Assembly: GCA_010405405.1 (NCBI GenBank)
Contig: MU004231.1
Span: 1,681,784 to 1,745,783 of the forward strand
Direction: 5' to 3'
DNA length: 64,000 nucleotides
From: Microthyrium microscopicum
Taxonomy: Eukaryota
Of the stretch, positions 5,050-45,835 are shown one piece after another. A program made the translations under genes and the position numbers. Position 1 is the stretch's first letter. Each line of letters opens with the position of its first letter. A model generated the notes under the pieces. That model did not search any database, was not told where the DNA came from, and was given only the letters and a program-made list of their open reading frames with translations.

Positions 5050-7634
5050 ATGTATCTTTCCACACTCGTTGCAGCTTTGGTATCGCTCTTCTTCATATCT
5101 TCAGTATCAGCAGCGGCGTGTCCCGTAAATCAGCCTCCCTCTGACCCCGGAAACATCAAAGATTTGTTTTTGAGAAAAATCCTCGACCAATCCATCGAAT
5201 ATGGGAACTTTTCTCACGCACCTAGTCCAGGTCCGCTCAAGGTTGGAATCGTAGGAGCTGGTGTAGCAGGACTATACGCTGGAATACTCCTCGACTCTTT
5301 GAATATCGACTACGACATATTAGAGGCATCTGAGAGGATTGGTGGTCGCATCTTTACGTATAGGTTCGATGAGGCTGCTTGGGATGCGTCAAAGCCTGGT
5401 GAACCAAACTATTATGACTACTATGTATGTTACAAAAAATGCCTTGGAGGTCTCGATACTAAAGGGCTACAGGATGTAGGAGCAATGCGATTTCCAGGAA
5501 TGCCTTGGATGGATCGTGTTATCGGTTCACAGAACACTTCAATCATATCCTATGTCAACTCGAAGATAAAGTCAACGGACCGGATCCAACAGATTCCATA
5601 CATTTTTACTGCAAACAACACATATCGGCTATTCAATGATCAGCTCGTGTATAATCAAGTAAATCCTTCTGCCGCGACGTTCAAAGTCCTCACTTCGGAC
5701 GGTGGTCCAATTCCTAACAATGATCGCATTGCTACACTAAATACAGAGACAGCTCTCACCCAACCACTTCAGTCACTGATTGACGTCTTCACCAAATACG
5801 GATTTGACGCTGGATTCAATAACCTCATGCAGTACGACAACATTAGTCTACGAGAATATCTCCTTCAAAATGGCTATTCCAGTCGAGACGTTGACTGGAT
5901 GGAGACAATCGACGATGCCACCACTCATTTCGATGCGTACTCCCTCTCGCAAGCAGTCTTGGAACAGTGGATTTTCAACAGCGCACCGCTAGATTCCTGG
6001 ACTGCGATTGAAGGCGGCATGGATCGTATCACATATGGCATGACACAAATTCTGAAAAATAAACCACTACTCAATAAATGGCTGTTGCTAGCGAGCGCCA
6101 GCATTTTTGCTACACGGCGCCAGCATTTTTGCTACTCGGCGCCAAAATAATATGGCGCTCTAGGCTATGCCTAAATAGGAAATAAATATAGAAATCTTAG
6201 TGTTAGTCTACTAGTCAAAAAGCAGATTTAAAAGAAGTATAAAATATTAAAGCTTCTTATTTACTATAGATAAAGCCTACGGGACTAGTTTAGTAGATTA
6301 ATTCCTACGATAGTAATTTTACGCCTAAAATACATATCTAAAGAGATCTATCTCTTTCGTATCTTATTATCGTTTTTATGCCCTCCTATAACCATTCCTT
6401 ATCCTATCTCGACCCTATTTTTAGTATATCTTAACCCTGTTTTTAGTATATTTATATTCTTCAACCTGCGTGTTTAAAGGGAGGTTGTTTCTACGACTTC
6501 TTTACGTTTTTAAGCTCTAATTATACTCTATTCTTAGAATCCGTTTTATAATAAGTAGAATATAGTTATTATGGGTTAAAAATATAGTAGAGGTGAAGCT
6601 TAAGTAATCAACGCTAAGGAGTTAACTCTATAAAGATTTAGCTACTTTGGGCTAAATAATAGAGCTAAAGTAATACGTCTTACCTATTTAAGTCTAGAGC
6701 CCTGCAGTATTACCGATTTAGTATAGCTCTGGCGCCGAGTAGCAAATATTCTGGCGCCGAATAGCAAAAATGCTGGCGCTCGCTAGCAACAGCCTCAATA
6801 AATCCGTGTCAAGCTTAGTTGGGCAATCAGACGGTCAAATCAAAACAATCACACGTACCGGCGAAGAACGTACATATGCACACATCATAAACACAGTTCC
6901 ACTCGGTGTAATGCAAAACATGGACATGTCAACATTGAACCTGGACTACAACAAGACATTTGCAATCCGTAAGCTACAATACGATCCAGCAGGTAAAATT
7001 GGCATGTCATTCAAAACACGCTGGTGGGAGAACGATTTCAAAGGTGGTCAGTCCTATTCCGATCTTTCAATTCGACGATGTGTCTATCCGTCATATGGCG
7101 TCAATACAACCAACGCAGCAGGCGCAATGATTGCATCCTACACGTGGGGACAGGACTCATCGCGACTTGGATCGTTCTATAATTCAGATGATGCGCGAGA
7201 TTACATTACAAATGTCACACTTCGCCAACTTGCAGCTATGAACAACGTGACTGTCGAATTTCTACATGCCCAACTCGTGGATACACATCTATGGGATTGG
7301 TATGCACATGAATACGCTGTTGGAGCGTTTGCGATGTTTGGTCCAGCAGAGTTCAGCACGGTCATGCCTAGCCTTATGAAGCCTGCGTTTGAAGGAAAGA
7401 TGCATTTTGCTGGAGAAGCTTTATCCAGCGGCCACGCTTGGATCATTGGTGCAGTCAATTCGGCATATCGAACTGTTATGGAGATATTGGCTGTCGAGAA
7501 GAGAGATGATTTGATCAAGTTGATGGGTAAGTATACCGTCCCTTCGTGATTTGCTAGCATATTGACTACAAACTTTAGTACAAACTTGGGGCATCATTGA
7601 TGAGGTAGATATGGGATGGTATGTGACGAAGTAG
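5050..7634 (+). pseudogene. Secreted flavin amine oxidase / L-amino-acid oxidase, interrupted by a DNA transposon (exons otherwise intact)
   Basis: N-terminal signal peptide; VGIVGAGVAGL..LEASERIGGRI, DVGAMRFP, IEGGMD, HFAGEALS..HAWIIGA motifs. Introns 5425-5472 and ~7527-7578. Removing 6080-6803 rejoins KPLLNK-SVSSLVGQ in frame. Confidence 0.85.
6080..6794. mobile_element. Non-autonomous Mutator-like (MULE/MITE) element, 715 bp, RIP-mutated interior
   Basis: TIRs GGCTGTTGCTAGCGAGCGCCAGCATTTTTGCTA... / ...TAGCAAAAATGCTGGCGCTCGCTAGCAACAGCC with internal ~22-bp subrepeats. Perfect 9-bp direct repeat TCAATAAAT at 6071-6079 and 6795-6803. Interior is AT-rich, TpA-rich and CpA-poor. Confidence 0.93.
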
Positions 7635-12372: not shown

Positions 12373-13099
12373 GACTGATTAAGTAGCAGTGGATAAAAAG
12401 CTGGGGGAGCTTGGAGCTGGAAGAAAGACGGGAGGTTGAAACCTGGAGATGGATGTACAGTGCTGTCGGGGACCTGCTTATCCCCCCCCTAAAATCACAG
12501 ATTAGCGGATCATGCCGTAATTAGGTGGATTCCTAGGACGGGATAAACGTTATAGTACAAATTTATAGGGCACTACCTAGTTGCAGCCTATTAGCGGCCC
12601 CTAAAAACCATCCTTCCTAAATACTACATCTTAGGTTGTTTTTAAAGCTATACTAGCGATATAGATAGTAAAATAGTAGTGTTTAATTACTACTTATTCC
12701 TTATTTCAAAATATCTTAAATAGGTAGTATTTTTACTAATTAATAGTATTTAAAGCTCTTTAATAATAATTATATCTTAACGAAGCTAATTAGGCTATAA
12801 TCTTAAGTTAGGTTCCTAAAGATATTAAAGATATTATAGATAGAAAGGTAGTATTCTTACTAGTAGAGTTAAAGATTTAGAGTTAAAGATATTAAATAGT
12901 ATAGGATTATTAGCGCTAAGGGCTATTTTATTAGTAATTAGATCTAATAGTAGTAAAGAAGCTAAAGATCTAGTACTAGCGATGCTAATAGGGTATCATT
13001 TTAAAGTTAATAAAGAAGTAAGAGTAATAACTATAAGATATTTTATTAATTTAGTTTAAAATTATTAAAATATACCTATTTAACGTTATCTTATCTTTA

Positions 13100-15000
13100 A
13101 TAATTTCTTAATATCTTCTATATAACTTCCTACTAGTCTTTTAGTACTAAAATACTTCTTAATACTATAGTTCTTATTTATTAGGTCCTTAGTTCTATCT
13201 AATCTCTAAACTACTATATATTAATGCGTACTATAAGTAAATACTACGTAATAGTACTTAAAAAAGCTACTAGATAGTTATTTAAAATCTTTATAGATAT
13301 AGGCAAAATTCTTTTACTAAAAATGCCTACGCTAGCTCTAAAGGCTTTAGCTATGTCTTCTTATCTTAGGGATCTAATTTCTATATCTTATGCTAAGCCT
13401 ACGCTATTACCTATTCTTTATAGTAGAGTTAATATAAATACTATTATTCTTAACTATTTACTAATATTATTAGCTTCTTAGGTTTAACTAGATAAGTATC
13501 CTTTATAATAGGATAGTAAAACTTAAAATATCTTAGAGTATGCTGCTAATAGATTATAACTTTAAGATATTAATATTACTTAGCCTCTACTAGTTAAAGA
13601 GACCTAAAATATACTTAATACTACTTAGGATATTATTTATAAGCGTTAATATAGCTTAAACTACATTAAAGAGATATATTTACCTAGAATTACTACCTAA
13701 AATGCTATAATAAATAGTACTTAATATTCTAAGATCTTTTTACCTAATTCTAGCGCCCTAGTTCCCTAGATTAATTTTATGCTCTTAACTTTACTAGTAC
13801 CTAAATTCCCTCCTAAAATAACTATTATTACTAAGATTTAGAAGCAAGGAATAGCTATAATTAAGAATAAATTTAATTATTTTCACTAGAGCTTAGTTAA
13901 AGGCTTTAAAAAGACTTAGGACTAGCTAAATCTACGCCTTAAGGAATAAGGAACAATATATAGTTCTTCTATCTTAATATAGATATTTTTAAAGTAAAAG
14001 ATAAAGAAGAAGACTAAAGATCTTTAATATAGCTTTAGCATTAATTTAGGCTTAGGCAATAAGAAGCTTAGTAATATTCTTACTCTAATCTAGTACTAAA
14101 TTACTTACTAGTATAAGTCTAATTTCTATAAGAACTCTTAACGCGTTAGTAATCCAAAATAGGAGATTATATTCAGTATTACTAAGCCTAAACGTCCCCC
14201 TCTAGCGTTAGCGATAGTAATAAAGATATTAAAATAGGCAAATCTATAGGTTAAAGAACATCAACGTCGTCTTAATTCCGCTACAGAATTCATTACATTA
14301 TTAAATAAATAAATATGTCAGAATAGCTATTATCCTAACTACCTAGATAGCGGTTATTACTTTATTAATATACGTCATAAATACCTATTCTTAAACGCTT
14401 CGTTTTTAAATAACTAGGCCTAAAAGATTACATCTAGAGACGCTAATGTTAATAAACTACTACAAGTAATAATGCTCAAGTTACTAGAATGTATAGCTAT
14501 TCAACGCGCTTACTATTATAAAGAGGTACTATTAGCATTAAATTTATAATAGCAACCTATTAATATTAATATCTACTATAATTAAGAGAGCTTAAACTTA
14601 CCTAGTAGAGTCTCTAGTAGGCTATTTAATAGCTAAAGCTAGCGCTTGCGTTTAATATCTCCACTACGCCGTTACAGCGTTCCTATAGCTTTAACACAAT
14701 ATCTTAGTCCTTCATTAGTAACAAAATACTACTTAGAGAAGGAATTTAGTAAATTTAAATAATAGTTCTCTAATAACTTAGAGTTTAGGTAATATTTAGT
14801 ATTTAATCGTATTATAGAAGCCCTTAAAGAGAAGAGATATCGTTTAAGGCAAGTAGTAGAGTATAATTATACCTAGTTTAAGCAACTTCTTAGTAAGGGG
14901 CTATTAACTATAATTAATAATATAATTAAAATTTATAAGGAAATCATTACTAATTTTTATTAGTATTATGCCTATTAGATTAGGCTTCTTAATAATACTA
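13100..15000 (+). pseudogene. RIP-destroyed second ORF of the transposon (unknown protein with a Cys/His cluster)
   Basis: Frame from 14163 reads KPKRPPLALA..EHQRRLNSATEF..ICQNSYYPNYLDSGYYFINIRHKYLFLNASFLNN*A*KITSRDA. Stops are of RIP type (TAG/TAA). Boundaries are approximate. Confidence 0.55.
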
Positions 15001-15119
15001 ATTTTAGAAGCTCTAGATAAGTTTTATAGTAGTAGTAGTTTAATATTAAATTCTTATTATAGTATAAAGAAATTAGAAGTAGAAGTAATAATTAAAGCTA
15101 TTTCCTAGATATTCCTACA

Positions 15120-16300
15120 TAACCCTAAACCCTAAGAGATTATAGCACGTTCTATAACATAATTGCTATATTAAATATATCCTAAAGCTTAATTCCTACC
15201 TACTACTCCCTTACCTAAAACCTTTATTCCTATCCTTAAAAACTACTTAAAAGATATAGAATTCTTATAAGAATATTACTAGACGTTATTTATCTTTAAC
15301 TAAGCTTTTAAATTACTAAAAAATTCCTTAATAGGATTAAAATCTAGACAATAAGGCAATAAGAATTCTAATCGTATCCCTATAGTCCTAAATATCTTAT
15401 AGACCTATTTACTATAATAAAAGGATACATTATCTATAATAATAATACTTCTAGGAAGAGGATATTACTAATATATATTTAGAAGCCTATTCTTATACTA
15501 CTAAGTAAAGCCTTTACTATTACTATTAGCTATATAAATATCTACTAAAAGGATACTATTATACTTATACGCTAGTAGAATATTATACTATTTAATAGCG
15601 TTACTAGTATTCTTTAATTTCTACTTATTAAGCATTAGGAAGCTTTTAATATTAAGCTTAATACCTAATTTACTCTACCCTATTATTCTTAAGACGCTAC
15701 TAATCCTATAGCCTACTTTATTAATAAATATAAGCTATTCTATAGTATATTTTATTATCTATTTATAGTATTTAAGACATACTTTAGTAAAGCGCTAAGT
15801 AGTAATAATCTTTAATTATAAAGGATAAGATTACTACTATTTAACGATCTAAATACAACTAACCTTCTTTTTAGTATAACTATACTTATTTAGGACTTTA
15901 GAGATAGTCGTTTAACTTAATATAATCCTAAATCTATCCTATATAAACTCTAATATCTTAAATTATATCAAATTAGGTTAATAAAGAAGATATTTAAATA
16001 GCGCAATTTAAATCTTACAATCTAGTTATAGTAGAAGTCCTAGTTTAGTATAAATAGGCTTAAACGATCCTCTTATCTTTAATATACAACGCTAGTTCTA
16101 TATAGTAACTATACTATAACTAACTTCTCTTATAATAATAGCTTTAGAGTATTTAAGCGTTATTAGTTCTTATACCTATATTTGCTATATTTTACTAAGA
16201 TATTAACCTAACAATAGGGTTAAAAAAGAAAGAGGGCGTTTAGATAGCATTATAATACTAAAAATTAAGAAATTTAAGGAAGATTTAGCTTTAGAATTAA
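15120..16300 (-). pseudogene. RIP-destroyed DD34E transposase
   Basis: One minus frame gives E*LIFINKVG (QLVFIDE), G*SKLG (GWS), YNILLAY (ILPAY), PRSIIIIDNVSFY (MDNASFH), LLPYCLDFNPIKEFF (LPPYSPDFNPIEE). Exactly 34 residues lie between D (15432-34) and the E position (15327-29). Ends are approximate. Confidence 0.88.
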
Positions 16301-21800: not shown

Positions 21801-24800
21801 GAGTCAGGCAAGATATCCACAGCTACAGCAGTCCTAGGGATGATGTACATTGGTCAGTTGTTGACCTGCACTAGGGGGTAAGCACAACCTGGCGGAAATA
21901 AACAGTATCCAACAAGGCTGGTTAGGCTGGAAAAGCATCACGAAGAGTTAGTTCAAAGGTCAGCCGGTATGGAGTACCAGTTCAATCAACCCGAACTGTT
22001 GGATCGCCACTAGGCAGTTAGGCCGTCTTGATCGGTGTGCTTGGTCTAATTCTGATAGCCATTGAGGGTGATGGATTGGGCGCTCAAGCGAAAAGATATG
22101 ACAGACAGACTCATGGGCATCAAGCAGGAGGCCGAGGATGAAAGTGATGGCCGCTTGAGAGGTTCAAAGCATAAAGGCCGGAGCGCGGCTGTGGTTGGAC
22201 AGACTGGTTCACCATTGAGGTGATTCACAAGTTGAAGTTGGAGGCAACAGACCAATAACAGCAGCGTAAAAGCGGGTGTGTGGATGGCAAAAGCCGCAAA
22301 AGGACCTTTGATGCATTTGTAGTTGATGGCGATGGCCCGGTCGTGGACCTGGGAGTTTGGACCTCGTCTCCTTCAAATGTTGACCTCTTGTTCTCGACAC
22401 CCCTGCACTCACGTTTGAAGCGCTTCCTCAATGGGGCTTCCCAGGCTCAATTGGGTACATCCATCCTGTTCCTCTTCCCATCTCTCGCACCCACGAGTCT
22501 TGTAAAAGTCCAAAGATGGCAATATGACGGGGTTCTGAAGCACAACGGGTACTGCAATGCTTCGAGAAAGACTAACAAATGGCGATCCCTGGAACCAAAC
22601 TTCGGTGTATCTCATTATCCATGCCAGACTCTTTAATCACCAATTCTAGGGTCGGTTGAGCTCAAGCCATCAGATCCCATGCGCGAAAAGTTGCTCTATA
22701 TTGCTGATGATTGCGCGGCTATATGATAGTTTACCAGTTACCGTGGTTCTGCAATGTCCTACGTATATGATCAAAATGTCGTCGTCGCAGTAGGGTGTAT
22801 TGGAGCAAATGGAGGGGAAAGAGCAACTGGTCATGGTCGCATTATTTTCATGCTGGCCGAGTCAAAATCCCAAGGTTGCGACACCGATAGATATAATTTC
22901 TAGTTTACATTCAAGTTGATGGCGGGACATTCGAGTCTCAGGCTCTCAGGCTGACCCGCATCTGCCGTGTACAACTTACCAATTCCCCCAGATGTATGCT
23001 GCACAGCTGCTATGGCGGTGATGCAAATTGCAATCCAAGCCAGTGATTTGCTGCTCCGTCTACCCAAGATTGGTCAAGATGCAAGTTGGGTCAAATGTAG
23101 AGTCGCCCGTGGCCTCATTAGCCAGTAGCGGCAAAGAGGAGAGAATGAGTCTGCAATCTGCATCAAACTGCTGCAAGACAGCTTTAATCGTCGACTTCCC
23201 GCAGCACCTTTGCATCAGAGGTTCAAGCTTTCATCCCTACTACTCTCAAGTGTGCTTTAAGACAGTCAGACTAGATATTCCTTACTCCGTACCGTCCGTT
23301 CATCCTACAGGGCTAGCCAGCTCTTTAGTGCTGGGTTCACACTGCACAGAGCTGCCAGGTTCCCGTTTTTATCAACGTGTGTCTCTGCCCTGTCAGACGA
23401 GAGCCTTCTCTTCTGTACTGCCGGGGCCCCCGTCCTCTACATTTGAGTGCTACAGCCTTCAATTGACGTCTCGGGACTCCAAGCACCCCAAGCGTTATTC
23501 CTAGTTGCGGTGCGCGATTGCTGCTTTGGCCAAGTCAATCTCCAACCTTGAAGACGCCTCTTGCTCATCGGCTTTTGGGAGAGTGTTGCTGCCCAGCGCG
23601 CAGACTTCCAAAGTATCCATATCATAGTCGAGGATCCCGGGATACGGAGTTGGAGAATGACAGAGTTGACGGAAGTTTAAAAGATACGCCAAGTGTGGTC
23701 AACCAGGCTGAAAGTGCGCCAATCGTGACAGAAAAGCTAGTATTCCTTCCCAATTCCCAACAAACGGTGCGCGCTATTCCAGTTGGAACCTATGCCGTAC
23801 GGAAGTAGACTTTTCTTACCTTAGACTGGCTTGACTGGCTACCGATGAGCAGAGGTCCCAAGGAGAAAAAAGAATTATACCATACCTGTTCTTCTCTCTC
23901 CCCACCACTTTCGTTGAGTCGCAAACCTCCAAAACCTCCGTAGTCAACCCTACCTACACTCTCTCCCCGCTACATCTTTGATGCTTTCCTGACCTCAATA
24001 TCCGTATTTTACTACCTCTTACTCTTCTCTACATAAACCTTCATGTACTTTACCTTGCCTTCCGCCCGCTCTTGGACTCGCACCACTACTGCTGGCTAAG
24101 ACTGGCGTAATCAAGCTTGATCCTTCAACCGGTAATCCACACTAGTTTACTCACAGCAGCAGGCGTGCAGGCGTGCAGGCGTACAGCAAAGGCTTGCTTC
24201 AAAGTAGTTGCAGGCTTAAGCCAGGTCTTGCTTCCAACTTTTCCAAATCCCCCCCAAATTATCCAATCTAGGATTATCTAGCACACGCTTAATCTTTTGG
24301 ACTGAAGCCAAAGCAGCAGCCACCGGGAAGGCATCCAAGCACCATCTCTGCAGTCCGCCTCGTCCGCATAATCCCATTCCCCCCCAGCTAGGGCCACTTG
24401 CTCCCCTACTGTTCACTTTCGAGCACTTTGGCACTACTCTACTCTCAGCCTTCACTGTTCACTGTTCAGGCTCTCAACGTTGAACGCCAGGTCGCTCTTT
24501 CAAAACATCCCAAGCGATCATCCCAATCATCTCCTCCATCTGGTCTTTGCGCGCGCCTGCCCTTCTGCATCCATCTTTCACCCAAACCTCTCTCCAAACT
24601 CATCCACCTGTTCTTCTATCCTAGGTCTGCCTATCGTCGCTTTTTTCCTTCCTCCCAAGTGTCGCCGATCTGTGCCCCGGCTTTCCACGGCTTCAACTTG
24701 CGACCTTTGTTCCTGCAGCCTATCTACTCGCCAAATTTGTAATCTCCTGGCCCCTCTGCCCCCAGTCTGCCACTCCCGCGCCCTATCAGCATTCAACCTC

Positions 24801-24986
24801 CAGAATCCTACTTTTTGCCTCAATTGTCGACCGCGACCTTCCTCTAGTGCGCATATCTATTGAACTTGCCAATTCCATCTAGCTCTCTGCCCGCTGCTCT
24901 TTTCTCGCGTCTTGCGACATTGAGCCGTCTATTGCATTTGCGGCCGCTATCCGTTTTAACGCTCGCGGGGCTGCGTGGACAAAGAA

Positions 24987-26732
24987 ATGGCCGGTGGGCC
25001 GAGTCCGAGCAGTCTAAGTCCCAACAACGGAATAAACTCTTCTTTCATACCGACATCATTCGCATCTTCAACTTCTCCACATCCTCATACTGCATTTGGT
25101 CCCCAAAGGTCCATGGCCGTGGACTCCCTTCCAGGAGTTGGCCCAACTGCGCATCCCTTCTCACTCAACACGATAACAGCGCGCAAACCTATGGAACACG
25201 CGCCAAATACTCTATTCTCCCTTGGACAACTCGAACCATCGCCTACTATCCTAGAAATGGATAACTTGCCCTCCATACTCATTCGCAAACTCCCTCGAAA
25301 CTGTAATTCGGATGTCTTGCGCTCAATGCTACTGTTCGCAAAGGACGTGGCAGATATGAGGTTTGTCGACTTTGACTTTCCTGATGACAAAGGATTTCAA
25401 ACTGCGATCGTACGCTTCAGTTCACTCGCTAGCGCGAACGATGCTAGAGAATTGCTCCATGGAAAGACTATGGGTGCCGATGCGACACCCCTGGTGGTCG
25501 AGGTACACAACGCGCCCGCAGGGCGACGCAATACTGTTGATGGGATTTCGTTGCGACACGGGCCAAACCAAGCTTCCTCAATGGCTCCAACCAACGGATT
25601 AAGACAAAGCTCGCGCTTTAATGGCACCTTTCAAAACTTGGAAAAGCTGTCTCCCCCTAATGGAATGGATACCTTACCTGCGCCCGAATCGAACTCTGCG
25701 AACATTCAAAGTCTGTTTTCTCCACAATCTCCATTGGCAAATTCTACCGTATCCAAGTCCATCATCAACGACGATCCAACGGACGAGACTGGCAAACTTC
25801 TCAATGATGCTGTCACATTCCCAAAAGGAGGGGACTCCACAAACCCAAACATGGGACGCCGACTAACCGCTCAGCACATGCCTATATCTCGATTTGGTAA
25901 TCTCTCGCTATCGACTGCAAATCAAAACGCAGGTCTTACTTCCCCACCCATGTCTGCAATGGTTTCACCTCGATCAATAGTTCCAAGTCAATCGCCAAAT
26001 CCAACAATGTCTCCAAGTGGCATGACTCCTCTCCCAGGACTAGGCCCAAATTCTGCCTACCCAATGCCACCGCAGCATTATCATCGACCAAATTATCCTC
26101 CAGTAAATCCAGCGGACCAAAACCCACCATGCAATACTCTATACGTTGGTAATCTCCCAATGGACACATCTGAAGATGAGCTCAAGGCCATGTTTTCCAA
26201 GCAGCGTGGCTACAAGAGGCTTTGTTTTAGAACCAAGGCCAATGGACCCATGTGCTTCGTTGAGTTTGAAGATACTTCTTTTGCAACGAAGACCCTCAAC
26301 GAGCTGTATGGGCAGCCTCTGCACAACAGTGTCAAAGGTGGCATTCGACTTAGCTTTTCCAAGAATCCTCTAGGCGTCCGCAGCGGACAAAATACCTCCA
26401 ATCATAGCATGATGAACTCGCATGGCTCTATGAGCAACATGGGCACCCATTCTGGACAAGGTGGATTTTCTACCGCTACTGGACCTCCACCTGGTCTATC
26501 AGCTCCACCTGGATTCACTAGCCCCAGCATGCCCAACATGAACGGTATGAACGGCATGAATGGCATAAGCGCTATGAATGGAAGTAACGGGCTCGGTCTC
26601 TACAATACCAATGGCTTCAGCGTCGCGGGGAATGGCTTCGGCGGATCAATGCGCCAGCCGCTTGCCAATGGTGTTCCTTCGTCAATGGCTGGAGGCCAAT
26701 ACTCTAATATGGATTACCACAACTACCGTTAG
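24987..26732 (+). CDS. WHI3: Whi3/Scw1-like RRM RNA-binding protein, intronless, with low-complexity regions
   Basis: Signature [67 protein letters not shown]; degenerate N-terminal RRM; MNG repeats. First in-frame ATG is 24987. Confidence 0.92.
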
Positions 26733-29432
26733 ATGCGACAACGATTTTATCAAGAAGAATATGCGACTCATGATTAGCAAGGCCGCTGACATTCGTTGAA
26801 ACTATCTGGGTGGTATCATAAAGCATCATTATGCATTTTGAACGCAGCATGACGGTTGCTTTTGCATGGCGTCTGCATACATTGGCGCATTTTCTTGCGC
26901 TTACACTTTTCTGCCCATACATCTACAGCATTTTGTTGTTTCTTTCCTTTTTGTCTTATTCTTGATTTCATTGGATACTCGATGCATTGCGAACGGTTCT
27001 GCATAGCTCGGCTTTCCAAATTCCTTTATTATACCACTCATGGATGGAGCACTTTACCGCAGGGTTTTTTAACCATCGGATTCGTCCATTATGCCAAACC
27101 GTGGCATAGACCTCGACTTCGGAAATGGCGTTTTCATACGCCAAGTATGGATTGCATTGGATTTCTTATGTCAACAAATGGTTCGGTAAACCCTGACCTC
27201 AACTTTTAAATCAGGACTATTCTGCGCCTTATTCCAGGAACGCAAACATATACTTCTTCTTTCGACACCGAAATCTGTACATGTATACATCTCATGGCGC
27301 ACCAGCAACACTGTCCCTACCATTATACCATGCATACAACCTTCTGGCATATTCGCGATTTTTCTTGTGTCCTTTCATCATTCTGGTTTTTTTCATTCTT
27401 CTATACCCCATCTTCCCACCATGTTCACTCGGGCATTGTTCAACAACAGCATATGGCGCCTGGCGTGAAGCATGGCATCTTGTTGAGAACGGGCTTCACC
27501 TTTTCTCAATACCCAAACACAATACCCAATGCAATACCCAACATCTATCCCCATTCTCATTTTCGAGACATTCACCATACCCCAACAACATGTTGCCATT
27601 TTTATAGTCGAGCATACGCGGGAAAGAGCGAGGCATGGAGTTTTTCGTTGCAGTAACCACATTGATGACACCATCAGGATAAAAGGAAGCGCAAGGGCGT
27701 TTTGGGAGGCAAAATCGGGACACTTTACAGAGATGTTTATTCATTCATACACCCCATTGTTGCGATGTTATTTTGTGCGGATTATATTCTTGGTTGCTTT
27801 CTCATTTGTATTCGCTGGATTTTGTTTTGCGGCTCGATATCCACCAGTTGTAGTTTTCATTCCAAGGCAATTGTAGTTCGTTACCCCTTTTGAACATTTC
27901 CAGAGCTCGAGTCTCGTGGGTTTCTATTCGTGTTTTTTTGGGATTGTAATCATTGAGCACAGCGGTGAAGGCACATCACGAGGTGTTTTTTGGTTGGGGT
28001 TTGCTGCCGTTGAGGTTCAATGAATGGGCTGGGTTAGAATCTTTAGCTTGGTTTTAGTGCGATATATACGATCGAGATCTTTGGCCTGTGGCTATAGGTC
28101 TGGTTTTTATTTTATTTCATGGTGTGTTGAATGCAACTGTTTTGGATCTCTCGTTTTATTGACTGTGTGCCAAATTGTCTCTCTCGCCAAGTTCTTGGTA
28201 CTCGGTACCTGGCTTATCTGTGACCATTAAGCAGCGACAGGGTGGGTGTTATGGGCGCTGATGGCTGCATCGTGAAGATCAGGGGCACTGGCGAACTGAT
28301 AGTGGGGGGTCACGATGGATTATGGGGCTGGGGTCCTCCTTCGGTACCGTTCGTTCCTGTTGTTCCCGGGCAGGCTGAAACACATAAAAAGAGCCTAAAG
28401 AGGCCGCCGGTCCCTGCCGTTTCCTTTGTTCGCTGCAGAGCCTCATTGTCCGTTTTGGGAAGTTGCGATGCATTTGTGATACTTTCTTAGCTTGAGCTTC
28501 CTTTGTGTTAAATATATCGCTCTGCTTGTGTGTACGTTTTTGATAGGCTTCTGAGTTGCTGTTCTGAAGGAGGATTTGCTGAGCTTGCGGCGTCGAGTCT
28601 CCCATACTACATACCATACTCTCTATAAAACCTGCAGATCACTTCCTACGTCATTCTACTTTTTTGTGCATCCTTACTTCTCCAGTCACAAAGGTCAGTC
28701 TTGGACAGTAATAGTTCGTACACGACGATGATCACTACAGCTATAGAACAAGTACAAGTCTGCGTCCCCTGGAACTGCAAGTAGTTGGTTGAAATAGAAT
28801 CTGGAGTACAGTCTTTAGCGCCCTGCATGGTGAGCCATAACCTGTTTGCTTCAACTTCATTCCTTACAACAGTTTGAGTCTACTTGCAGCCAAGAACTCC
28901 AGAATGAATACAATAGTCCACATGATCATGTTACTTCTCCATGGTCTCGCTACTAGTCGTTTGTGAGCTAAGTATTCCTTGTTTAATTACTCATCCTCCA
29001 GTCCCGTTCTTCTAACAATACATACCAAACATTGTTCCCATGCCCTACCTGTCACTCACTGCACGAATGACATTGACATCTGATATCCAGGAACAATTGG
29101 AAACGTGGAAACCTAAACACCCGTCTTCAAAACGGAGCCCAATTCACTTCATACCTCTCCTCATGAACTCATGACATCCTCAACTGTGACCGAAAATATC
29201 CAACTACGCCGCTTCACTCGTTCACACAAATCACACCCTCAAACGACCATCACCGAACCCTCAAACCCGCCTAAAAGCAAATCGTTCTTTGTAAGTCCCA
29301 TCAGAATCCGTTCAGAAACGACCGTCCATACACCACCTCTACAAACTCTCCCTCCACACAATCCTTCCAAACTCTCAGCATTACATGCCAACAACAACAT
29401 ACACTCTACCAACATTCCAACCAACTAACAGA

Positions 29433-29996
29433 ATGAAGAAGTCAAAGCAAACCCCAGCGCGCCAACGAGCAATGAACTACGTATCCGCCCACAACACCCC
29501 CTCCATCCCCGGCGGTCTCCCCCTAACCTACACCCGACTCCTCCTCCGCCTCTTCCAATTCATCCTCGGCCTCACCGTCTGCGGTCTCTACGGCACCGAC
29601 CTAGACGTCGCGCGCCAAGCGCACTTCCCCGTAGATTCACACTGGGCATATGCCGTCACCATTGGCGGTCTATCCGCCTTTGTAGCCCTGCTCTTCCTCA
29701 TACCGCAGATTCCGTGGGGCGCGGAAGGTGGGGCGGGGAAGGTTTTGTTTGCGATTGATGGGGTGTTGGCTTTGCTGTGGGTGGTGGTGTTTGGGATGTT
29801 TGGGAAGATGTATATTGGTGAGGATCCGGAGGATACGGGGCATGGGGATGGACCGGGGATCGTGAGGATGAAGAATGCGGTTTGGGTGGATTTGACGTGT
29901 GTGGTGCTGTGGATTGCTACGGCTGGGTGGGGGTTGTTTTTGTTTTTGAGGGGGAGGAAGGGGAGGACTTTACATACGGGGCGGGCGGAGGTGTAG
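29433..29996 (+). CDS. MARVEL-domain 4-TM membrane protein
   Basis: LRLFQFILGLTVCGLYG.D, W.YAVTIGGLSA, DGVLALLWVVVFGMFGKMY, RMKNAVWVDL motifs. Probable upstream intron 29291-29431 (GTAAGT..CTAACAG). Confidence 0.85.
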   Translation: MKKSKQTPARQRAMNYVSAHNTPSIPGGLPLTYTRLLLRLFQFILGLTVCGLYGTDLDVARQAHFPVDSHWAYAVTIGGLSAFVALLFLIPQIPWGAEGGAGKVLFAIDGVLALLWVVVFGMFGKMYIGEDPEDTGHGDGPGIVRMKNAVWVDLTCVVLWIATAGWGLFLFLRGRKGRTLHTGRAEV

Positions 29997-41288: not shown

Positions 41289-44200
41289 TTAACGAGTGGA
41301 ACTAGCAGGCTTGGTGGATGTGCTGAAAGTTGTTCTTGTGGAGGAGCTGGTCACTGATGACGAGGCTACCAAAGGAGCATAAGGAGGACAGTAGGTGTCG
41401 GTAGTAGCAGGCTTGGTCGATGTTGTACCCACGCGCACCATGACTTGACCGTTAGTCTTTGGCACAATAGCGAAGCCAGCAGTGCTGTACAGCAAGCATG
41501 CAGTTGCTTGCGTAGTTCCAGTGAAATCGACACCGGCACAGTCAGCAGCAGCAATACAGGCTTGAAGACATGAAGCATCGCTCAAGGAGCTGGACCCAGG
41601 ACCCAATTTGGCTGTTACGGTAGTTGCCGTTAAACCGTAGCCGCAGAAATTCTTGAACCACCTTGTGGTCGAGCCGCTGGTTTGGCTGCCGCATTGTAGG
41701 CTATTGGATGAGGTGCCTGAGCAGCTGACAGTTGTAATTGTTGCACCAGGGCAAGTCGCAGGGCATGCGGAGGCAGATGGTGCTGCGCTGCTGCTGCTGC
41801 TGGATGCGGGTTTAGACGAGGAAGAGGAGATAAGTGAGCTTGACGATGCCTTCGTCGACGATGACGATACAACTGAGCTTGAAGATATCTTGGTCGAAGA
41901 TGAAGACTTGACTGAGCTCGATGAAGTAAAGGAGCTTGAGGTCACACCTGGTGCACTGGTTGAAGGAATCGAGCTCGATGCTGCGGGAGAGGCTGAGGAT
42001 GAAGTGGCAATACTGCTGGTCGCTTGACTGCTAGTAGCAACGACAGAACTCACCGAAGAGCTTGCACTGTCGCTAGAGCTAGCAATAGCACTTGAGGAGC
42101 TGGGGACATCGCTAGAAGAGCTAGGGATATCGCTAGAAGAGCTTGGAACGTCGCTGGAAGAGCTTGGAATGTCGCTGGAAGAACTTGGAACGTCGCTGGA
42201 AGAACTTGGAGAGCTGGAGGAACTGGCAATGTCACTAGAGCTGGAAGAACTTGGAGAGCTGGAAGAACTGGCAATGTCACTAGAGCTGGAAGAACTTGGN
42301 NNNNNNNNNNNNNNNNNNNNNNNNNNNNNNNNNNNNNNNNNNNNNNNNNNNNNNNNNNNNNNNNNNNNNNNNNNNNNNNNNNNNGAACTGGCAATGTCAC
42401 TAGAGCTGGAAGAACTTGGAGAGCTGGAAGAACTGGCAATGTCACTAGAGCTGGAAGAACTTGGCGAGCTGGAGGAACTGGCAATATCGCTGGAGCTGGA
42501 ACCTGAACTTGGAGAGCTGGAGGAACTGGCAATGTCACTAGAGCTGGAAGAACTTGGAGAGCTGGAGGAACTAGCAATATCGCTAGAGCTGGAAGAGCTT
42601 GGGGGGCTGGAGGAACTTGGCACGCTGGAGGAGCTGACAACATCGCTGGAAGAGCTGACGTCGGAGGAAGTTGCCACAGCGCTGGAAGACGCGGGAGAAG
42701 AACTTGAGCTCATGTCAGAAGATGATGCAATGCTACTAGAGCTTGCGACGCTTGATGAGTCCGTGGCTGAAGCTGAAGAAGAGACTACCGAGCTTGAGGT
42801 TGAGGCAAAGCATGCGAGATCATAAAAGTGATAAGGTGACGCTGTGTTGGAGACCCAGTTTCCTGCAACGACAGCTGTGTACAAAAGGCACTCCGTGCCG
42901 CCAAATGTGAGTGACAAGCAGCCAGCCTCTGATTGGCAAAGAGCAGCGCAAGAAGCTACGTCGGCAACATTTCCATCGTATAAGAATGATGCAGGTTTGC
43001 CCTGATCATAACCCGCCAGATTGCAGCTTGAGCTGGACGCGCTTGGGGCGCTGCTTGATGAAGTAATGGTAGCTGAAATGCTGCTAGAACTGTCAACACT
43101 GCTAGTGGAAATTTGCGAGGCAGAGTCAGTTGAGGATGCTGTGGAAGAACCACTAGACATTGACGAAGAGGAAGAAGTCGACGAGAAACATGCGAGGTCG
43201 TAAAAGATGTAAGATGAACTGGGGTTCGAAATGAAGTTTCCAGCAACAACAGCTTGGTATGTAAGACACTCGGTGCCACTGCCGCCGAACGCAAAGGCGA
43301 GGCATGATCCCAAGCCTCTGCATTCCGCAGCGCATGCAGCCACGTCGGCAGTGTTTCCATCGTAAGTGTAGGCCAGAGGGGATTTGTTGTCATAGCCTGC
43401 CATACCACACGATGCAGATACGGATGGAGCAGCAGAGCTTGAAGTGGTCGACGAGATGCTGGAAGATATATCTGAGGAGGAGCTGCTAGAGGCTGCAGTA
43501 CTTGAGCTAGATAGGTCGCTTGAGGAAGAGGACGCACTAGACGAGACCTCGGAGGATGAAGCAGTGCTTGATATAGACGAAGTCTCAGATGACGAGGCTG
43601 TGCTGGACGCAGTTGAAGATACGTCAGAAGAACTTGCTGAGCTTGAAGCAGTTGACGACACTTCAGATGATGAAGCGGTGCTGGAAGCAGTTGAAGATAC
43701 GTCGGAAGAACTCGCTGAGCTTGAAACGGTTGACGACACTTCAGATGATGAAGCGGTGCTGGAAGCAGTTGAAGATACGTCGGAAGAACTCGCTGAGCTT
43801 GAAGCAGTTGACGACAATTCAGATGATGAAGCGGTGCTGGAAGCAGTTGAAGATACGTCGGAAGAACTCGCTGAGCTTGAAACGGTTGACGACACTTCAG
43901 ATGATGAAGCTGTGCTGGAAGCAGTTGAAGATACGTCGGAAGAACTCGCTAAGCTTGAAACGGTTGACGACACTTCAGATGATGAAGCGGTGCTGGAAGC
44001 GGTTGAAGATACATCGGAAGAAGTTGCTGAGCTCGAAACTTTTGACGACACATCAGATGATGATGCTGTGCTGGAAGCAGTTGACGATACTTCGGAAGAG
44101 GAGGCGGTACTTGATGAGCTCTCGGTCGATGATGCAGTGGAAGACACGGTGGAAGACATATCAGATGAAGCCGTGGATGAGACAGTAGAGGAAGAAGCGG

Positions 44201-45835
44201 TTGAGGAAGGTACAGACGAGCTTGTAGAAGAGCTCAAGTCTGAACTGCTTGAAGTAGCCGATGAACTGGCTGAACTTGATTCTGTTGAACTGACATCTGA
44301 GCTTGAGCTAGATGCTGAGCTAGATGCTGAGCTGGATGCCGAGCTGGATGCCGAGCTGGTGGCGGAAGAATCTACAGAAGAAGAGCTGCTAGCTGATGAT
44401 GAGATATCAGAGCTACTGGCGGAGCTTGATGCTGCGGAACTGGTCGCGGAACTTGATACGGCAGAACTAGTTGCGGAGCTTGATACAGTCGAACTGCCGG
44501 CCGAGGAGACATCAGAGCTGGTCGCGGAGCTTGAGGCAGAGCTACTAGCTGCTGATGATGATATATCAGAGCTCGTCGCGGAACTCGATGTAGCAGAGCT
44601 GGTGACCGACGAGGAGACTGCTGAGCTGGAGCTGGAGCTGGACACGGCAGAGCTAATCGCAGATGAGGAAGCAGAACTTGATACTACAGAGCTGCTGCTG
44701 GCCGATGAAGAAATGGCGGAACTGCTGGCCGACGACGAAATGGAGGAACTAGTAGCCGGAGCGCTCGATGAACTGCTCGCGACAACGAAGCACGAAATGT
44801 CGTAAAACTTGTATGGTGAGGCTGTGTTGGTGTTTAGGTTTCCAGTCACTGCACCCTTGTACAAGAGACACGTATTTGAGCCAACGGCGAAGGACAAGCA
44901 GCCGGTGTTGGCTTTGCAATACGCTGTACATCCCGCAAGCGTTATCTGCGCCGCCGTGGTACTAACAAGGTAGGCTGGAAATCTGTTAGCATAAGAGTAC
45001 GACCAAAATTATCGACTTGAAAAGACCATTTGGTCATTTCGCGAGAAACCGCAAAACATGCAAACACCCATCTCATTCGGTGGGAGCCATAGCTCTCGAT
45101 AGAAGTGCATTGCACGGTGCCCATCAAATGCGATGTGAGATGTCATGTCCTTGGTCTTATCGTATGTCATCAAGATGTGTGATGAGAAACCAGGGCTATC
45201 TTACCGGCCGGCTTTTGGTTGTCATATCCGGCGGTTCCACAAATTCCTGATCCCAGTGGAGCTGGCGCGCTTGATGTTGATGACTTGATGCTCGAACTTG
45301 AGGAAGGCTTGACACTGGACGTTGACGATGGCTTGACGGAAGAGGAGCTCGAAGGTTTGACACTCGAAGTAGAAGCAGGTTTGCTAGAGCTGGATGGCTT
45401 GATACTAGAAGTTGAGGATGACTTGACTGAAGAGCTCGAGGCTTTGACGCTTGAAGATGACGCTGGCTTGGAAGAAGTCGACGTTGGCTTGATAGAAGAT
45501 GTTGTTGCTACACATGAGCGGTCATAGAAGGCATAGGGAGAGGCCGTGTTTGCCATGAAATTATTGGTACTAGTCAAGGTAAGCATTAAATCATATCATT
45601 CGTGATGTAGAGACCCATACGTAGGGACTGTATAAAGAAGGCAAGTGGCAGATCCAAACGCGAAGGATTGGCAAGTTGTATCTGCTAAACATTTTGTCCC
45701 ACAGGCAGTATATGTTGCTGCTGCTGACACAGAATACGCGAAGGTGCCGCCATCATATCCTTTGGCTCCACAAGCAGCAGACTGCGCGGTGGCAGCAAGT
45801 GCTGCGACGAGCCCGACTGACAGAAACGAAGGCAT
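41289..45835 (-). CDS. Secreted Ser-rich mucin/adhesin-like protein with four related 6-Cys PAN/Apple-like modules plus a distinct C-terminal Cys domain; 3 exons; spans an assembly gap
   Basis: Signal peptide MPSFLSVGLVAALAATAQS. Repeated C...GYD..C...C...C.SF.FG...CL.Y...N...SPY.FYD..C. Introns 45570-45620 and 44975-45204. Confidence 0.85.
42090..42620 (-). repeat. Coding tandem repeats (45-bp SSSSDIASSSSSPSS and 21-bp units)
   Basis: Unit GAACTGGCAATGTCACTAGAGCTGGAAGAACTTGGAGAGCTGGAA is repeated on both sides of the N gap. Confidence 0.9.
42300..42384. other. Assembly gap (85 N) inside the tandem repeat
   Basis: Run of N. Confidence 1.
43560..44110 (-). repeat. Coding 78-bp (26-aa) tandem repeat SSSDVSSTASSTASSSEVSSTVSSSA, ~7 copies
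   Basis: Near-identical units at 78-bp period (e.g. 43645, 43723, 43801). Confidence 0.9.

Follow-up and report, generated by a model that had tools for sequence, protein, structure and literature searches.

Control of an mRNA by the RNA-binding protein that it encodes is a common principle, and U1A, for instance, autoregulates via its own 3' UTR. Filamentous ascomycetes, like Ashbya, grow as multinucleate hyphae. When the described systems are considered, the closest one is Whi3 of Ashbya gossypii, which, according to a preprint, binds and regulates its own mRNA (10.1101/2021.04.25.441362). There, removal of the five UGCAU words of that mRNA halves the amount of Whi3 protein, i.e. the sites have a positive effect, and since the words were removed by silent mutations, they would lie in the coding region. 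The RNA motif of Ashbya Whi3 was determined by bind-n-seq (PMC13537349) and the GCAU motif of yeast Whi3 by SELEX (PMC3045596), and condensates in Ashbya can repress or host translation (PMC12992109). Work on Saccharomyces cerevisiae reports that Whi3 lowers mRNAs in proportion to their GCAU density, with Ccr4-Not recruitment through 3' sites proposed by its authors (PMC3875557), and that GCAU and UGCAU are enriched and conserved in the 3' UTRs of Whi3/Whi4 targets, a Pcl cyclin included (PMC3875557, PMC3045596). Scw1 of Schizosaccharomyces pombe, which has the same type of RRM as the protein considered here, likewise destabilises the mRNAs it binds, and scw1 mRNA itself is present in the Scw1 RIP list (PMC4222612 and its supplement), although this hit could be a nascent-chain artefact. 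As to budding yeast, the Whi3-TAP RIP data show no enrichment of WHI3 mRNA (rank 2947), which speaks against a universal loop; the strain used was WHI3-TAP-KanMX4, a C-terminal tag cassette, and its control lacks the RRM alone. Insertion of such a cassette normally costs the gene its native 3' UTR.

The window analysed here, i.e. the whole 64,000-nt stretch of DNA from the filamentous ascomycete Microthyrium microscopicum, includes an RRM gene of the Whi3/Scw1 family (24987-26732), whose transcript and protein are organised as follows.

23235..24986, plus strand: 5' leader of up to 1.75 kb, from the start of the RNA contig at 23235
24987..26732, plus strand: single-exon coding sequence, 581 aa, for a Whi3/Scw1-family RNA-binding protein, from homologs and an RNA contig without internal splice joint
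25263..25511, plus strand: RRM-like domain at the N-terminus, its RNP motifs degenerate, from a second RRM_1 stretch and a weak PDB match (E 0.36)
26094..26384, plus strand: C-terminal Whi3-type RRM, from conservation, structure superposition and PDB sequence match
26385..26732, plus strand: low-complexity tail rich in G, S, N and M, without polyQ
26733..28062, plus strand: 3' UTR, whose longest isoform measures 1330 nt or more, from the RNA contig

The label "Whi3-like", given to this gene when the cluster downstream of it was first noticed, is correct at the level of the family: the C-terminal RRM superposes with a TM of 0.92 over 99 residues on a yeast cluster carrying Pfam Whi3-like_N, several homologs are named "cell cycle RNA binding protein whi3" or "similar to scw1" by their sources, and one copy of a Whi3-type RRM was found in the genome. 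Matches to atlas features were all under 0.9. The nearest named homologs come from Dothideomycetes (50-58% identity), and among 266 homologs, these being close RRM relatives from a representative search that ended short of the yeasts, the RNP2/RNP1 aromatics Y386, F424 and F427 and the C-terminal SKNPLGVR stretch are 99-100% conserved. The N-terminal RRM-like domain, with its degenerate motifs, is probably not the main RNA binder. The nearest solved RRMs by sequence are those of MEC-8, of couch potato and of RBPMS, the best PDB match being an 88-residue MEC-8 RRM chain (6dg0). This likeness serves as an analogy only: MEC-8 RRM1/RBPMS dimers recognise pairs of short motifs separated by more than 6 nt, and they prefer GCAC, GCAU being a poor ligand for MEC-8 RRM1 (PMC5311487), and the helix-1 dimer residues of MEC-8 RRM1 are not evident in the RRM found here when an RBPMS alignment is inspected by eye. 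Ashbya and Microthyrium share a Whi3-family RRM protein and a cognate mRNA with (U)GCAU, but differ in that the former combines a polyQ protein, condensates and five UGCAU words, whereas the latter has two RRM-like domains, a 3' UTR with 19 GCAU and no polyQ; its 581 residues hold 3.3% Q, with a longest run of 1 and at most 3 Q per 40 residues. The coding sequence of this gene contains a single TGCAT.

Transcription of the locus is documented by a single RNA contig of 4828 nt that spans 23235-28062, at a depth of 460 versus 2-20 just upstream in the one run concerned. This run was taken as RNA by guess; three introns are skipped in neighbouring genes, with GT..AG or CT..AC ends, which speaks for its spliced nature, and its contigs give neither strand, poly(A) site nor shorter isoforms. 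Because the contig covers 26823-27636, the GCAU cluster sits in a transcribed 3' region, as the original prediction had supposed. Directly at the contig end lies a TATATA, which we take to be a candidate efficiency element of the 3' end. In the leader, five upstream ATGs with short upstream ORFs occur at 23657-24043, the last 940 nt being ATG-free, and ortholog leaders are ATG-poor on the sense strand (2-5/kb vs about 19 on the antisense strand, last 750 nt). Three short ORFs within the 3' region (27281-27607, 27294-27656 and 27529-27876) were rejected as genes, showing no Pfam match over cut-off and no splice joints. Further downstream, at 28828-29439, two plus-strand spliced joints skip 261 and 148 nt; the second crosses the ATG of a MARVEL-domain ORF (29385-29996), so that the real start of this ORF must lie further upstream. 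The elements of the 3' region are given below.

26823..27636, plus strand: GCAU cluster of 19 sites, 7 of them UGCAU, from counts, shuffles and genome control
26823..26890, plus strand: densest part of the cluster, 6 sites spaced 10-17 nt
26984..27005, plus strand: site equivalent to ortholog GAUUCCCC, with the GCAU/GCGA flanks only, inferred from position and flanks
27403..27582, plus strand: five ATACCC (Ustilago Khd4 motif), from a motif count; three stem from a 12-nt tandem repeat
28063..28068, plus strand: TATATA adjoining the RNA contig end, candidate 3'-end element

The GCAT cluster is a genuine and conserved feature. The hand count on which it was proposed is exact (19 sense GCAT, 7 as TGCAT, with 9 of the 19 inside 26823-27004), and the opposite strand is indeed far poorer, with 5 GCAT, 4 of them as TGCAT. 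The expectation of about 3 set against this count agrees with shuffling of single bases (mean 2.85, with none of 3000 shuffles of the stretch reaching 19), but it overstates the excess: the mean rises to 7.8 when dinucleotides are preserved (again 0/3000) and to 14.4 with trinucleotides, where 66 of 3000 shuffles reach 19. Most of the count is therefore explained by the fact that the tract is rich in CAT as such (46 vs 14 expected); even so, GCAU is the dominant NCAT word, with 19 copies vs 8-10 for each of the other three, while TGCAT alone is modestly enriched with dinucleotides preserved (50/3000 shuffles). The boundaries of the cluster were originally set on the motifs themselves; when a span of fixed length, 1 kb from the stop onwards, is taken instead, it still holds 19 GCAT, a number reached by 1/3000 dinucleotide and 273/3000 trinucleotide shuffles. 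This density of 19/kb stands against an average of 3.6 GCAU/kb (vs 3.1) for yeast targets (PMC3875557, PMC3045596). Elsewhere in the same genome, a sample of 80 pieces of 10 kb each, which amounts to 800 kb or 2% of the genome and was read on both strands, has a maximum of 12 GCAT per 814 nt. At 112 further gene ends, which come from an ORF and hexamer filter rather than from annotation, the first kb after the stop averages 4.7 GCAT, with maxima of 11 for GCAT and 4 for TGCAT. Thus, a sense-strand (U)GCAU cluster inside the transcript, as expected of a Whi3 target, is present at this locus.

Within the window, the GCAT peak ranks 35th among all 256 4-mers, many of the higher-ranking peaks falling in an AT-rich relic and in a repeat-coding gene. 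The former is a very AT-rich block at 13000-16000 (GC 0.23-0.28), presumably a repeat relic mutated by RIP; the latter is a large Ser/Thr-rich repeat-coding region at 41289-44805, with units of 21, 45 and 78 nt, whose minus strand matches a PAN domain and which is overlapped by long plus-strand ORFs. Three different 22-nt tandem duplications occur at 6095-6144, 6405-6451 and 6728-6779, in the interval that separates the two halves of a gene for a flavin amine oxidase. No tandem repeat was found that could account for the GCAT cluster itself, and this origin was rejected, as was a structured RNA at the cluster, given a fold z of -0.66 vs shuffles and no credible Rfam match. Predicted pairing counts against ready binding, in that the unpaired probability is below 0.15 at 16 of the 19 GCAT sites, which are no more accessible (0.11) than comparable words. 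The five ATACCC at 27403-27582, out of 12 plus-strand copies in the window, correspond to AUACCC, the decay motif of Ustilago Khd4 (PMC10450656); they are lineage-specific rather than conserved, with 5 copies here vs 0-2 per group among 19 groups of orthologs, and no ortholog of Khd4 was identified.

A total of 80 ortholog loci were collected from metagenome contigs. The stop is included in 78 of these, and in 65 the sequence runs on for 750 nt or more beyond it; these form 19 groups when 3' regions sharing fewer than 150 aligned bases are kept apart, or 14 if any BLASTN hit links two of them. The UTR of the window aligns to none of these groups, so conservation is measured on the ortholog sites and not on the individual sites of the window. 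When each group is represented by a single locus, GCAT is commoner on the sense than on the antisense strand in 19/19 groups (5-16 vs 0-7 per kb; about 11/kb vs about 4 after the stop, Wilcoxon p 1.3e-4), and its density falls with distance, from 10-12/kb in the first 750 nt to 6-7/kb up to 1250 nt and about 4/kb, i.e. background, beyond. Neighbouring gene ends in the same contigs are unbiased (5.4 vs 5.6, n=19, one of 20 having been excluded for overlapping the UTR). TGCAT reaches 3.2-3.6/kb in the ortholog 3' regions vs 0.0-0.4/kb in the coding sequences; a raised GCAT level over the final 450 nt of the latter was left uncounted, because it is frame-bound (64/83 in one frame). Among all 256 4-mers of the ortholog UTRs, GCAT ranks 2nd against dinucleotide shuffles, behind AAAA, and 10th against trinucleotide shuffles, so the enrichment anticipated for orthologs is observed. 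The first 750 nt of these regions also contain GGCGT at 3-4/kb and GGAGTT at 1-2/kb, both with about 0 on the antisense strand.

Retention of single sites requires more caution. In plain pairwise alignments GCAT is the best-kept 4-mer (0.70 vs 0.36; 87 pairs, 10 groups), yet it also comes first with block-permuted (0.28 vs 0.14) and foreign partners (0.20 vs 0.08), which shows that plain-alignment retention is inflated in part by aligner bias; these ranks were dropped and a masked test was used instead, in which each of the 110 commonest 4-mers was masked before aligning one pair per group. Here, GCAT is kept in 65/103 cases (0.63) vs 0.32 pooled, the highest rank of 110, and flank-anchored alignments keep 53/60 vs 0.61 pooled (rank 2). 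Masked retention is 0.36 for TCAT, 0.26 for CCAT, 0.28 for ACAT and 0.30 for GCAC. GCAT sites are thus kept above background in orthologs, as expected of Whi3 targets. The base 5' of the sites varies (T 60, G 62, A 36, C 32), which indicates from the alignments that the unit under selection is GCAU with a loose 5' base; GGCAT being as enriched as TGCAT (62 vs 60) counts against a Whi3 reader of the yeast or Ashbya type, which prefers UGCAU, and so does the enrichment of GCGT in the same regions.

A second element accompanies the GCAT words in most orthologs. In 67/78 loci, GATTCCCC is present no more than 700 nt from the stop, mostly 150-350 nt past it (4 of the 11 loci without it have less than 400 nt of sequence), as a single copy per locus (e.g. 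L002:3123-3130), often with GCAT just 5' and GCGT or GCAT just 3'. Its background is low: 1.6 Mb of the own genome contain it 4 times, and the remaining 787 kb of the ortholog loci 14 times. The window is without the GAUUCCCC core, but similar flanks stand equally far from the stop (26984-27005). A scan of the genome with the full GAUUCCCC pattern gives 9 matches vs 1 for a reversed control; the 9 are coding, intergenic or on the opposite strand and show no GCAT excess, and no GAUUCCCC regulon emerges from them. A stem around GAUUCCCC is likewise unsupported (48% paired vs 45% shuffled, no covarying stem), and a literature search on the word returned nothing relevant.

If Whi3 reads GCAU in this lineage, other mRNAs might be expected to carry such words, and the homologs of known targets offer a suggestive picture, which is not proof. 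Formin and Spa2, Whi3 targets in Ashbya, have homologs here that are GCAT-high within 300 nt of the stop (formin, L170, GCAT after 2241; Spa2, L197, after 2798): the first 300 nt hold 5 GCAT in formin, 5 in Spa2 and 6 in a Pcl-type cyclin against a background mean of 1.5, counts reached by 2, 2 and 1 of the 112 background ends, respectively, in a window picked after the profiles had been seen. Over the first kb, the three genes hold 8, 10 and 14, numbers that 15, 3 and 0 of the 112 ends reach. The G1-cyclin-like gene, which stands for the classic target, shows no excess (1 GCAT in 300 nt, 2 in 1 kb, the latter reached by 104 of 112), and this counts against Whi3 binding. The subtype labels of both cyclins are our assumption, Pfam giving cyclin families alone. 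Among 13 cyclin-family loci the Pcl-type gene (match 2317837-2318148, minus strand) is the only one with a cluster, its first kb holding 14 GCAT, 8 as TGCAT, vs 1 antisense, and it appears from these counts to be the best candidate Whi3 target found. GH72 genes are induced in the scw1 deletion of S. pombe (PMC4222612), whereas 0/10 GH72 loci here have a GCAU cluster; nor was anything comparable to the cluster seen at 4 KH and 7 RRM loci.

Taken together, the sites are transcribed, strand-specific, recurrent in orthologs and kept while the surrounding UTR turns over. We regard it as probable that the GCAU words have been selected as sites to which the gene's own product binds, with negative feedback as the likelier outcome. 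The C-terminal RRM would read GCAU in the manner of yeast and Ashbya Whi3, several Whi3 molecules would load on their own 3' UTR, and the result would be faster deadenylation and decay, or translational damping, keeping Whi3 dosage steady. The alternative sign would be stabilisation, as in Ashbya; decay is given a modest preference, because yeast Whi3 and S. pombe Scw1 destabilise the mRNAs they bind. A search of the open literature yielded neither binding data for Whi3 of filamentous ascomycetes nor any work on the protein or its UTR in these fungi.

It is nevertheless important to stress that conservation demonstrates selection and not the identity of the reader. The words could be real cis-elements read by another RNA-binding protein, alone or together with whatever reads GAUUCCCC, so that their likeness to the Whi3 motif would be incidental; we consider this unlikely, although it draws some strength from the 86 RRM and 19 KH matches in the genome, from a 5' base that is not the yeast-preferred U, and from GCGT/GGCGT, GGAGTT and GAUUCCCC being likewise enriched or conserved. 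The obvious substitutes fare poorly: an Rbfox reader would prefer GCAUG, and no such preference is seen (48 GCATG vs 57 GCATT); UCAU/YCAY, the KH-type motif, is not kept above background; and neither is GCAC, the word of MEC-8/RBPMS (PMC5311487). Moreover, the strongest cluster sampled in the genome belongs to a gene whose family binds GCAU. A purely compositional origin, i.e. a long CAU-rich UTR without any specific reader, would fit the 14.4 of 19 words produced by trinucleotide shuffles and the preference of plain alignments for GCAT even with permuted or foreign partners. This origin is already disfavoured by the masked alignments (0.63 vs 0.32, and 53/60 vs 0.61 when anchored), in which GCAT ranks first or second with the other NCAT words at background, and the ends of other genes differ little between the strands (4.9 sense vs 4.2 antisense GCAT); it now seems very improbable.

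The remaining possibility follows the proposal made for Ashbya, and was part of the original prediction: self-binding would seed a WHI3-specific condensate in which the mRNA is stabilised or locally translated, giving positive feedback. In Ashbya, WHI3 mRNA with its five UGCAU phase-separates with Whi3, and the halving of protein upon site mutation accords with such a role (10.1101/2021.04.25.441362); the many sites and the long low-complexity linker and tail of the present protein would suit it as well. Condensate seeding is nevertheless unsupported here and rather doubtful, since Ashbya condensates are tied to a large Q-rich region, which the present protein lacks and which is rare in its relatives (at least 16 Q in 40 residues in only 8/266 homologs); no sequence feature demonstrates condensation, and the yeast and S. 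pombe orthologs destabilise their targets.

Returning to self-regulation through the 3' UTR, a joint reading of all these elements can be put forward tentatively, as a possibility that we rate as less likely than not. An old, polyQ-independent Whi3 circuit of filamentous ascomycetes may combine dispersed GCAU words in a long 3' UTR with, in the majority of lineages, one composite site (GCAU, GAUUCCCC, GCGU/GCAU) for a second factor; its regulon may have kept formin, Spa2 and a Pcl cyclin, and not the G1 cyclin, and C-terminal tagging may have hidden the circuit.

Since self-regulation of Whi3 has already been shown in Ashbya, albeit in a preprint, the idea is not new in kind. What is new here is the position of the sites in the 3' UTR, the absence of polyQ and the conservation among filamentous ascomycetes: unlike in the Ashbya comparison, the sites recur across many of these fungi, their effect being predicted from sequence. 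Whi3 of filamentous ascomycetes mostly lacks polyQ, unlike that of Ashbya, and a conserved self-binding UTR would provide a handle on the ancestral job of Whi3, namely dosage-controlled mRNA decay versus condensate patterning. It also predicts a Whi3 binding motif for the whole subphylum and names candidate targets, and carries the warning that C-terminal tags remove the 3'-UTR element.
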